From assembly GCF_048403405.1 (NCBI RefSeq), contig NZ_CP183129.1: a DNA stretch of 64,000 bases. One strand, 5' to 3'. This document shows, piece after piece, positions 30,463-35,813 of this stretch (within the stretch, counting starts at the first letter, position 1; each line of letters opens with the position of its first letter). Under the pieces are notes generated by a model that had not been told where the DNA came from, ran no database searches, and was given only the letters and a program-made list of their open reading frames with translations. The position numbers and the translations under genes were made by a program. The stretch comes from Escherichia coli. Lineage in GTDB: Bacteria; Pseudomonadota; Gammaproteobacteria; Enterobacterales; Enterobacteriaceae.

Positions 30463-31122
30463 ATGGCTAACTGGTTAAATCAACTGCAATCCCTGCTTGG
30501 GCAAAGCAGTTCTTCTGCCTCCTCGTCTGCGGATCAGGGATTGGGCAAACTTTTAGTGCCAGGCGCATTAGGCGGACTGGCTGGGCTGCTGGTCGCAAAT
30601 AAATCAGCACGTAAACTTCTTACGAAATATGGCACCAACGCGTTACTGGTTGGCGGCGGAGCGGTAGCGGGTACGGTGCTGTGGAATAAATACAAAGATA
30701 AAATTCGCGCGGCGCATCAGGACGAACCGCAGTTTGGCGCGCAAAGTACGCCGCTGGATGAGCGTACGGAACGTTTGATCCTTGCGCTGGTCTTTGCCGC
30801 TAAAAGTGATGGTCATATTGATGCCAAAGAACGTGCGGCAATCGATCAGCAATTGCGTGAAGCCGGTGTGGAAGAACAGGGGCGTGTACTCATTGAGCAG
30901 GCAATCGAACAACCGCTGGATCCACAACGCCTGGCTACCGGGATCCGCAATGAAGAAGAGGCGCTGGAAATCTATTTCCTGAGCTGCGCGGCTATTGATA
31001 TTGACCATTTTATGGAACGCAGTTACCTGAATGCACTGGGTGACGCGCTGAAAATCCCCCAGGATGTTCGTGACGGCATTGAACGCGATCTCGAACAGCA
31101 AAAACGTACTTTGGCGGAATAA
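30463..31122 (+). CDS. yebE: Inner-membrane protein YebE (DUF533)
   Basis: 219 aa; position and K-12 synteny. Confidence 0.85.
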
Positions 31123-31214
31123 TTCCGCTCTCAGGATAGCCTGAAGTTGACTATTTCGGGCTATCCAGAACCGCACAGCCATTTGAACAGGCTGATTTTC
31201 TCTGTCTGCATAAC

Positions 31215-31400
31215 ATTCGATATCCGCGCCATTACCTGTCATCATGTGACTGCTCCCCGCCCTGTCGGGCGAGGCTTCCCACTTCTTAAGCCGCAACCGT
31301 CTGTGTGACGGATTTACGCTGGCCTCCATGGGCAGAAACGACGAGTCCCGCCGCTTGTAATTCCAGTATGCCCTTGCGTTTGATGTTGAGCGCCGCGTTG
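31215..31400 (-). ncRNA. Candidate TnpB-associated omega/right-end RNA (inferred, boundaries unknown)
   Basis: By analogy with characterised TnpB systems the guide RNA overlaps the tnpB 3' end and the right-end hairpin; not directly recognisable from sequence. Confidence 0.3.
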
Positions 31401-32455
31401 ATATCGCGGTCATGTTCAACTCCACACTCTGGACACTGCCAGATGCGCTTATGTAATGGCATCTCCGACATTTTGTGACCGCAGCAGTGGCAGGTCTTCG
31501 AACTGGCGAACCATTGATCCAGTTTCACCAGATGCACACCTTTCTCTGTTGCTTTGTATTCCAGTTTTGTGATGAATCCAGACCATCCAGCATCGCCTAT
31601 CGCACGAGCCAGATGGTGATTTTTCATCATATTTGCCGTTTTCAATGTCTCGACAATTACCGCTTGGTTTTCGTCAACAATTGCGCGAGATAACTTGTGC
31701 TGGAAATCGGCACGGGCACTGGCTACCCGTTCGTGAACGGCTGCAAGTTGTATTCTGGCTTTGCGCCTGTTTGCGCTCCCTTTTTTCTTACGGGACAGTG
31801 CTTTCTGCTTCCGGCGCAGGTTGCGACTTGCATTGATTAGGTGGCGGGGACTGGCAATTTTATTGCCGTCCGATTTGATGACAAAATGCGCCAGCCCCAT
31901 ATCCAGCCCTGTCACATTTGATATCAGTGCGGGCTTTGCCGGCGCTTCCATCCCGTCGTCACAGAGTAACGACGCGTAGTATTTCCCGGTTGCGCTGCGG
32001 CTCAACGTGATACTTTTCAGCATTCCCGTAATTTCACGATGTAAACGCGCTTCAATCGGCAAGATTTTCGGTATTTTTATCGCACCATCAAGGACTTTTA
32101 TGCCAACACAATGATAGCTCGATTGTCTGCCGTGTTTACTTTTAAAGGTTGGTTTACCTGCTTTCAGTTTCGGATTGAAAAAGTTAGAAAAAGCCACGTC
32201 GAGGTTAATTACCGCCTGCTGCAACGCAATAGAATCATATTCTTTAAGCCATCCATACCGGCGGGATTTCTTCGCCACTGCAAGCAGTGGTTTGAGGTCT
32301 TTACGCGGGTTTAAATTTACGCGGTGCCGCTGGTAAGAATGTTTCTTGATATGCAGAGCTTTGTTGTACGCAAAACGCACTGCACCGAACTGGGCGTTGA
32401 TAAATTCAGCCTGTTCTGGTGTCGGGTAGATGCGTACTTTTGTTGCTCTTAACAT
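31286..32455 (-). CDS. tnpB: TnpB (OrfB) RNA-guided endonuclease-family protein
   Basis: 389 aa; MLRATKVRIYPTPEQAEFIN N-terminus; C-terminal zinc ribbon CHCCGH...CPECG and RuvC-III-like DRDINAALNI. Confidence 0.9.
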   Translation of the reverse strand: MLRATKVRIYPTPEQAEFINAQFGAVRFAYNKALHIKKHSYQRHRVNLNPRKDLKPLLAVAKKSRRYGWLKEYDSIALQQAVINLDVAFSNFFNPKLKAGKPTFKSKHGRQSSYHCVGIKVLDGAIKIPKILPIEARLHREITGMLKSITLSRSATGKYYASLLCDDGMEAPAKPALISNVTGLDMGLAHFVIKSDGNKIASPRHLINASRNLRRKQKALSRKKKGSANRRKARIQLAAVHERVASARADFQHKLSRAIVDENQAVIVETLKTANMMKNHHLARAIGDAGWSGFITKLEYKATEKGVHLVKLDQWFASSKTCHCCGHKMSEMPLHKRIWQCPECGVEHDRDINAALNIKRKGILELQAAGLVVSAHGGQRKSVTQTVAA

Positions 32456-32511
32456 AATCAGCGCTCATTGATATAATGCTTTTATTTTAACACTTTAGGT
32501 AAATATATCAA

Positions 32512-32937
32512 TTGAGTAATCATGATGATTTACTGGCGGGATTCCTCCGCAAACGACACAGTGTCAGTAAGCTGGTTGTGCACCTTATTTTTACGACAAA
32601 GTATCGACGTAAACTATTCGACAGTCAGATGATCGCTCAGTTGCGTGAGGCTTTTGGCTCCGCTGCGGCAAAGCTTGAATGCGAAATTATTGAGATGGAC
32701 GGGGAGCCAGACCATGTACACCTGCTGGTTGCCTACCCGCCAAAACTGGCGGTCAGTGTGATGGTCAATAATTTAAAATCGGTATCATCACGTTTGCTAC
32801 GCCAGCAGAACGCGCATTTACGTATGCAGAGTAAAACGGGGCTTTTGTGGTCGAGATCGTACTTTGTCTGTAGCACCGGAGAGGCAACGATTGAAACGCT
32901 CAGAGCCTACGTTCAGAGTCAGTCAACACCTGATTGA
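32512..32937 (+). CDS. tnpA: IS200/IS605-family transposase TnpA (HUH/Y1)
   Basis: HUH motif HVHLLVAYPPK and conserved TKYRR; first in-frame start is TTG at 32512, so the start is uncertain. Confidence 0.8.
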   Translation: MSNHDDLLAGFLRKRHSVSKLVVHLIFTTKYRRKLFDSQMIAQLREAFGSAAAKLECEIIEMDGEPDHVHLLVAYPPKLAVSVMVNNLKSVSSRLLRQQNAHLRMQSKTGLLWSRSYFVCSTGEATIETLRAYVQSQSTPD

Positions 32938-33066
32938 TCTTTAAAGCCCTGCGGGCTTTTCGCCTTATATCCCCGCCCGCATTGGGCGAGGGTTTACGGC
33001 GTTTTTCGCTAAGCAATGACTACCCTGTTTCGCTTGCATCTCCGGTGAGTTTTGCCACCCTTATAA

Positions 33067-35813
<2,747 letters not shown>

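Follow-up and report, generated by a model that had tools for sequence, protein, structure and literature searches.

A structurally intact IS200/IS605-family element, very probably ISEc46, between yebE and ptrB in Escherichia coli

Between yebE (30463-31122) and ptrB (33094-35154), the window, that is the whole stretch of 64,000 nucleotides analysed here, carries two divergent genes, tnpA and tnpB, which are separated by a 56-bp spacer and bounded by a pair of subterminal hairpins (Table 1). The original prediction had read this segment as an IS605-family element with divergently transcribed, intact tnpB and tnpA genes lying between yebE and ptrB. The protein family scores, all above their cut-offs, and the RefSeq annotation agree with this reading, and neither gene showed a frameshift or an internal stop codon on re-reading. 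We assign the segment, with high confidence, to ISEc46, as a structurally intact copy of this catalogued IS200/IS605-family element, in which tnpA and tnpB are divergent, a layout of the IS605 type. ISEc46 is a named E. coli insertion sequence and a routine entry in E. coli mobilome inventories; the element is thus already known, and is found here in a common location. The name rests on RefSeq/PGAP annotation, isoforms usually being defined by a high identity, at the nucleotide level, to the reference entry in ISfinder. Over 1,971 nt that include its flanks, the window element shares 99.9% identity with RefSeq loci annotated with ISEc46 tnpA and TnpB; at the yebE-ptrB site, these genes carry the labels 'IS200/IS605-like element ISEc46 family transposase' and 'RNA-guided endonuclease InsQ/TnpB family protein'. 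Both window proteins are identical to the corresponding ISEc46 RefSeq proteins, transposase WP_000064873.1 and TnpB WP_000942662.1, as well as to those of another copy, L002.

Table 1. Features of the element between yebE and ptrB, in window coordinates.
Feature	Position	Strand	Description and basis
Complete ISEc46	31246..33008	-	1,763 bp; K-12 empty site, yfaX empty site, RefSeq ISEc46 copies
tnpB, RuvC-type RNA-guided endonuclease	31286..32455	-	389 aa; NF040570; Pfam PF12323, PF01385, PF07282
tnpA, Y1 HUH transposase	32512..32937	+	141 aa, TTG start; NF033573, Pfam PF01797
Target and left cleavage motif 5'-TTAG	33009..33012	-	CTAA on plus strand; directly outside the left end
Left guide tetranucleotide AAAC	32992..32995	-	Putative guide, the 4 nt lying 5' of the IPL foot; read from sequence
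Left-end subterminal imperfect hairpin (IPL)	32971..32991	-	CCTCGCCC-AATGC-GGGCGGGG; T.G pair on top strand
Second stem-loop in the left end	32943..32959	+	AAAGCCC-TGC-GGGCTTT; terminator-like, just after tnpA; read from sequence
Divergent promoter-like region	32449..32511	both	Consensus scan; pattern matches only
Right guide tetranucleotide GAAG	31275..31278	-	5' of the IPR foot; assigned by IS608 analogy
Right-end subterminal imperfect hairpin (IPR)	31255..31274	-	CCTCGCCC-GACA-GGGCGGGG
Right cleavage site TCAC	31246..31249	-	Final 4 nt of the element; empty-site alignment
Predicted omega/reRNA	31230..31400	-	Inferred; the tnpB 3' end and the right end, the final ~110-150 nt of the element, would form the scaffold

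The product of tnpB scores 342 bits against the NCBIfam model of the RNA-guided TnpB family (NF040570, cut-off 100) and aligns over residues 4-380 with the structure of ISDra2 TnpB, 8bf8 (E 3.6e-74). Its RuvC residues D185, E269 and D351 align to D191, E278 and D361 of ISDra2 TnpB, with which the zinc ribbon, formed by the two CxxC pairs C322/C325 and C341/C344, is also conserved. In ISDra2 TnpB, the substitutions D191A and E278A abolish activity (PMC8612924). TnpA reaches 141.8 bits against the NCBIfam IS200/IS605 transposase model NF033573 (cut-off 55) and aligns end to end with the TnpA structures of IS608 and ISDra2, including the HUH motif at H68-V-H70 and the catalytic tyrosine, Y133, in helix D. 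The RuvC-like motif, the zinc ribbon and the Y1 type of the transposase, all of which had been predicted, are therefore found in the expected alignment positions. No in-frame start other than the TTG codon at 32512 leaves the Y1 domain complete, and this TTG is also the start chosen in RefSeq; the codon and its weak ribosome-binding context suggest that TnpA is expressed at a low level. The same family searches bear on a different reading, in which the locus would be a domesticated TnpB/tyrosine-recombinase system, either a REP-associated RAYT or a Cas12f-like defence module, instead of a transposon. Matches to both were detected, yet they fell far below the cut-offs passed by the IS200/IS605 models (REP_Tyr_transpos, NF047646, 39 bits for a cut-off of 80; Cas12f2 and C2c8, 53-89 bits for cut-offs of 350-450), and the RAYT and Cas12f assignments were rejected on these sub-threshold scores.

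The boundaries of the element were defined by comparison with empty sites, a check that the original prediction had itself proposed. When aligned to the window, the yebE-ptrB spacer of K-12 MG1655 reads ...CATCAT/CTAAGC... without break, the slash marking the point at which 1,763 bp are inserted in the window. Because the empty site is continuous across this point, with zero bases shared or duplicated, the ends are unambiguous and no target duplication accompanied the insertion. The extent first proposed, 31230-33010, hence captured the element, with ends that are now corrected to those of Table 1. A second empty site gave the same picture: the joined flanks of the copy in yfaX (L014) match intact yfaX in one piece, at 100% identity over 240 nt. 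Target-site duplication is thus absent, the flanks joining exactly at two independent empty sites, and the termini of the element, GTGAC... and ...TTTTCG, are not inverted repeats. Such precise mobile boundaries, the occurrence at several unrelated sites and a presence/absence polymorphism with exact ends effectively refute domestication, which we regard as extremely improbable.

Six independent insertion sites were compared to orient the element: the yebE-ptrB site, a 5.8-kb retron plasmid, yfaX, an IncHI1B plasmid, and the sites of two plasmid relatives, from Enterobacter cancerogenus (88% identical) and Serratia proteamaculans (83.5% identical). The flank on the tnpA side is CTAA on the plus strand, or 5'-TTAG on the minus strand, at all six sites, and the six flanks on the tnpB 3' side have nothing in common. 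In the IS200/IS605 family, insertion occurs 3' of a fixed motif, which on the active, top strand abuts the left end (PMC3201880, PMC8612924). The constant TTAG on the tnpA side, combined with this family rule, therefore identifies the minus strand of the window as the top strand, with the left end at 33008, on the tnpA side, and the right end on the yebE side, an orientation drawn from the sequence comparison. The opposite orientation, with the plus strand active and the left end at 31246, was rejected, the flank being variable there and always CTAA at the other end. A target motif at the left end had been anticipated, and there is one, TTAG, but it sits on the right side of the window, at the tnpA end, and not near 31246. 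On its strand, the right end reads ...GCAGTCAC and terminates with ...GTCAC beside yebE, at 31246. TTAG is also the predicted target-adjacent motif (TAM) of ISEc46 TnpB.

Both ends carry the hairpin motif CCCCGCCC-N4/5-GGGCGAGG (plus strand; CCTCGCCC-N4/5-GGGCGGGG on the minus strand), with a spacer of four nucleotides at the right end and of five at the left. The motif occurs exactly twice in the 64-kb window, on the same strand and in direct orientation, for zero occurrences expected from 100 shuffles. The direct subterminal hairpins of the original prediction are thus real, although the one near yebE had been placed at 31243-31266, about 10 nt too far left. Their restriction to the two ends of the element leaves no REP or CRISPR-like array in the 64 kb, a further argument against domestication. 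Both hairpins fold as DNA on either strand, the minus strand being slightly more stable, and their irregular pair is T.G on the minus strand versus C.A on the plus strand. In relatives, the IPL is conserved with changes in its loop, and the IPR is invariant except for one stem base and one loop base. The second stem-loop of the left end is kept even in relatives that possess only tnpB, with changes in its loop, and was not flagged by a terminator scan.

The arrangement of short motifs around these hairpins recalls that of IS608, in which recognition of the cleavage sites falls to the four bases located 5' of each hairpin foot, guide AAAG recognising target TTAC; the distances in IS608 are 19 nt from TTAC, on the 5' side, to the left hairpin, and 10 nt from the right hairpin to TCAA, on its 3' side (PMC3201880). 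The left end of ISEc46 is ordered as TTAG, 17 nt ending in AAAC, and hairpin; the right end as GAAG, hairpin, and 9 nt ending in TCAC, which places the predicted right cleavage 9 nt from the IPR foot, on its 3' side. Every copy and relative has the identical terminus on the TCAC side. By the IS608 guide rule, AAAC is predicted to pair with TTAG, and GAAG and TCAC would match at the right end by the same analogy. Relative to IS608, the C to G change in the last base of the target is mirrored by a G to C change in the guide.

The right end is also where a guide RNA for TnpB would be expected. ISDra2 TnpB binds an RNA of ~150 nt made of the 3' end of tnpB and the right end, the last ~16 nt of which derive from the flank, and cuts TAM-flanked donor joints (PMC8612924). 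The tnpB stop codon lies just 40 nt from the end of the element, and the predicted RNA would therefore overlap the tnpB coding sequence at its 3' end. It would end with ...GUCAC-AUGAUGACAGGUAAUG, within the yebE-side flank, from which the predicted ~16-nt guide, ATGATGACAGGTAATG, would be read, from 31245 down to 31230. The empty site, TTAG/ATGATGACAGG..., would then constitute the expected TnpB target. In relatives, the last ~115 nt of the element are 88-98% identical, and the tnpB coding sequence upstream is 70-83% identical; the Citrobacter copy L025, whose right end is rearranged, was left out of these alignments. The consensus fold of the right end contains stem-loops, and the few differences between relatives map mostly to predicted loops. 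Covariation is almost absent, with 3 of 59 predicted pairs doubly changed and a covariation term of -0.87 kcal/mol, and is uninformative because the region is too conserved in the nine relatives aligned. The fold of the single right-end sequence is not significant (z = -1.5), an Rfam scan of 30900-33300 at E<=1 returned no curated RNA family over the right end or anywhere else in that interval, and a literature search for a TnpB with a TTAG TAM found nothing relevant.

By homology with IS608 and ISDra2, transposition of the element would follow the single-strand 'peel and paste' route, in which the Y1 TnpA would bind both subterminal hairpins on the top strand, the minus strand of the window, and cut the left end 3' of TTAG and the right end 3' of TCAC. 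Recognition of the two sites would rely on the AAAC and GAAG tetranucleotides just 5' of each hairpin. A single-stranded circle would be excised and reinserted 3' of another TTAG, without duplication. TnpB, loaded with the RNA derived from the tnpB 3' end, the right end and the flank, would cleave the empty donor joint flanked by TTAG, and recombination following this cut would restore the element. The transposition chemistry and the guide RNA in this scheme are what we infer, as is any activity of the window copy.

Compared with known systems, ISEc46 resembles IS608 of Helicobacter pylori in its Y1 HUH TnpA (E 5e-19), its subterminal imperfect hairpins, the absence of duplication, and, by prediction, a target read by the 4 nt located 5' of the hairpin. 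The geometry of the ends is similar (17 nt left and 9 nt right in ISEc46, 19 and 10 in IS608), whereas the target/guide pair (TTAG/AAAC versus TTAC/AAAG) and the right cleavage site (TCAC versus TCAA) differ. The two elements also differ in layout, tnpA and tnpB being co-oriented in IS608 and divergent in ISEc46. The layout of ISEc46 is that of IS605 and IS606 of H. pylori, which have divergent tnpA and tnpB genes and a left end on the tnpA side, but differ from it in host, sequence and target motif. With ISDra2 of Deinococcus radiodurans, ISEc46 shares all the RuvC and zinc residues of TnpB; by contrast, the TAM is TTGAT in ISDra2 and, by prediction, TTAG in ISEc46, and the tnpA and tnpB genes of ISDra2 partly overlap (PMC8612924) instead of diverging.

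The region between the divergent genes contains two promoter-like sites, both carrying an extended -10 TG. The site facing tnpA (TTAACA-17-TATAAT, 32449-32477, plus strand) has 11 of 12 consensus matches, and the one facing tnpB (TTGATA-16-TAAAAT, 32511-32484, minus strand) has 10 of 12. On the other side of tnpA, just 85 nt (33009-33093) lie between the insertion and the start codon of ptrB, with which tnpA is co-oriented, and the element may have displaced or replaced upstream promoter sequence of ptrB.

Full-length ISEc46 is present in 455 of 5,426 complete E. coli genomes, with a median of one copy per genome, and most of the 455 carriers have it between yebE and ptrB. The exact yebE-side junction is found in about 400 of the 5,426 genomes (~7%), and a context look-up with the exact TnpA protein returned the yebE-ptrB site in ten places out of ten; the independent insertion sites described above were taken from BLAST hits rather than from this look-up. 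Because the junction is shared by 400 genomes with a median of one copy, the yebE-ptrB insertion is mainly vertically inherited, the window copy itself having the appearance of a long-standing resident passed on by descent. With one copy at one shared site, transposition of the window copy may be rare or may not occur at all. Its position in the chromosome is of note in this respect. The plus strand of the window has a net positive GC skew and, relative to K-12, the window runs in reverse, which together place the active strand of the element on the leading-strand template, the disfavoured side for single-strand transposition (PMC8612924); this position might contribute to the stability of the window copy. 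Sister copies at the yebE-ptrB site have decayed: L008 and L011 bear frameshifts in tnpB, of +1 T and +7 nt, and L005 has lost 1 nt from a T-run at the tip of the left end (equivalent to ~31540, ~31798 and ~33002 in the window, respectively).

The widely shared junction with its single place per genome, the preponderance of this site among carriers and in the TnpA look-up, the decay of sister copies and the leading-strand-template position would all suit a relic, that is a copy confined to one E. coli lineage by vertical inheritance, which looks intact but no longer transposes. We nonetheless consider this unlikely for the window copy, in which both open reading frames, the hairpins, the cleavage and guide tetranucleotides and the promoter-like sites are intact, and whose TnpB is identical to that of recently moved copies, in yfaX and on the retron plasmid. 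Copies at three other sites, yfaX and two plasmids, are 99.4-99.7% identical to that of the window, with 6-10 mismatches in 1,763 nt. The yfaX and 5.8-kb retron plasmid copies share the same six single-nucleotide differences, and the further near-identical copy is on an IncHI1B plasmid. These near-identical copies at other sites show that the ISEc46 lineage has been recently mobile. The original proposal that the window element may be active is accordingly a reasonable one, all catalytic residues being present and near-identical copies occupying other sites.

Two synonymous bases of tnpA distinguish copies within this set: a C at 32544 is found in the window only, all other copies checked having a T, and a T at 32610 is common to the window and just one other copy examined, L002. 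On plasmid pJNE070796_3 (5,831 bp), the full ISEc46 (L013:901-2663) adjoins genes for a retron reverse transcriptase and a retron Se72-family effector. Beyond correct annotation, the finding matters little. The yebE-ptrB insertion, found in ~7% of complete E. coli genomes, can be used as a lineage marker, and the exact ends, the strand, the TTAG target and predicted TAM, and the predicted 16-nt guide provide a basis for testing an E. coli-native TnpB.

Relatives that possess only tnpB (IS1341-like) are common on plasmids of E. coli and Salmonella (L019, L020-L023 and L026, each matching at ~1201-2450). They are found on P1-like IncY phage-plasmids beside hokD, and on IncI1/IncF plasmids beside ardA, psiA/psiB or parB. 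These elements have the same right end and hairpins as ISEc46 and a tnpB that is 78-99% identical, but they are devoid of tnpA and differ at the left end, where the putative guide is GAAC and the flank TCAG. The TCAG flank was found in all five tnpB-only copies with a detected left-end hairpin. On the sequence evidence, the co-variation between AAAC/TTAG and GAAC/TCAG fits the IS608 rule. It is conceivable, though on balance we doubt it, that ISEc46 and the tnpB-only elements form a natural retargeting pair (AAAC to GAAC, TTAG to TCAG) with different insertion motifs and TAMs and a shared right end and omega scaffold, and that the single, clade-wide yebE-ptrB copy has been kept intact by TnpB homing despite its leading-strand-template position.

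A 38-nt solo remnant of the right end is also present on plasmids, beside hokD (L027:2001-2038 and the similar H123-H130, eight remnants from a spread sample of hits). Its sequence matches 31246-31283 at 100% identity and is bordered on the outside by the flank found at the tnpB-only copy L019; it probably arose by deletion from that insertion. Finally, the tnpB of L020 (1201-2448) is a mosaic, its 3' ~400 nt being 98-100% identical to ISEc46 and its 5' ~800 nt 70-87% identical, suggesting recombination between relatives.
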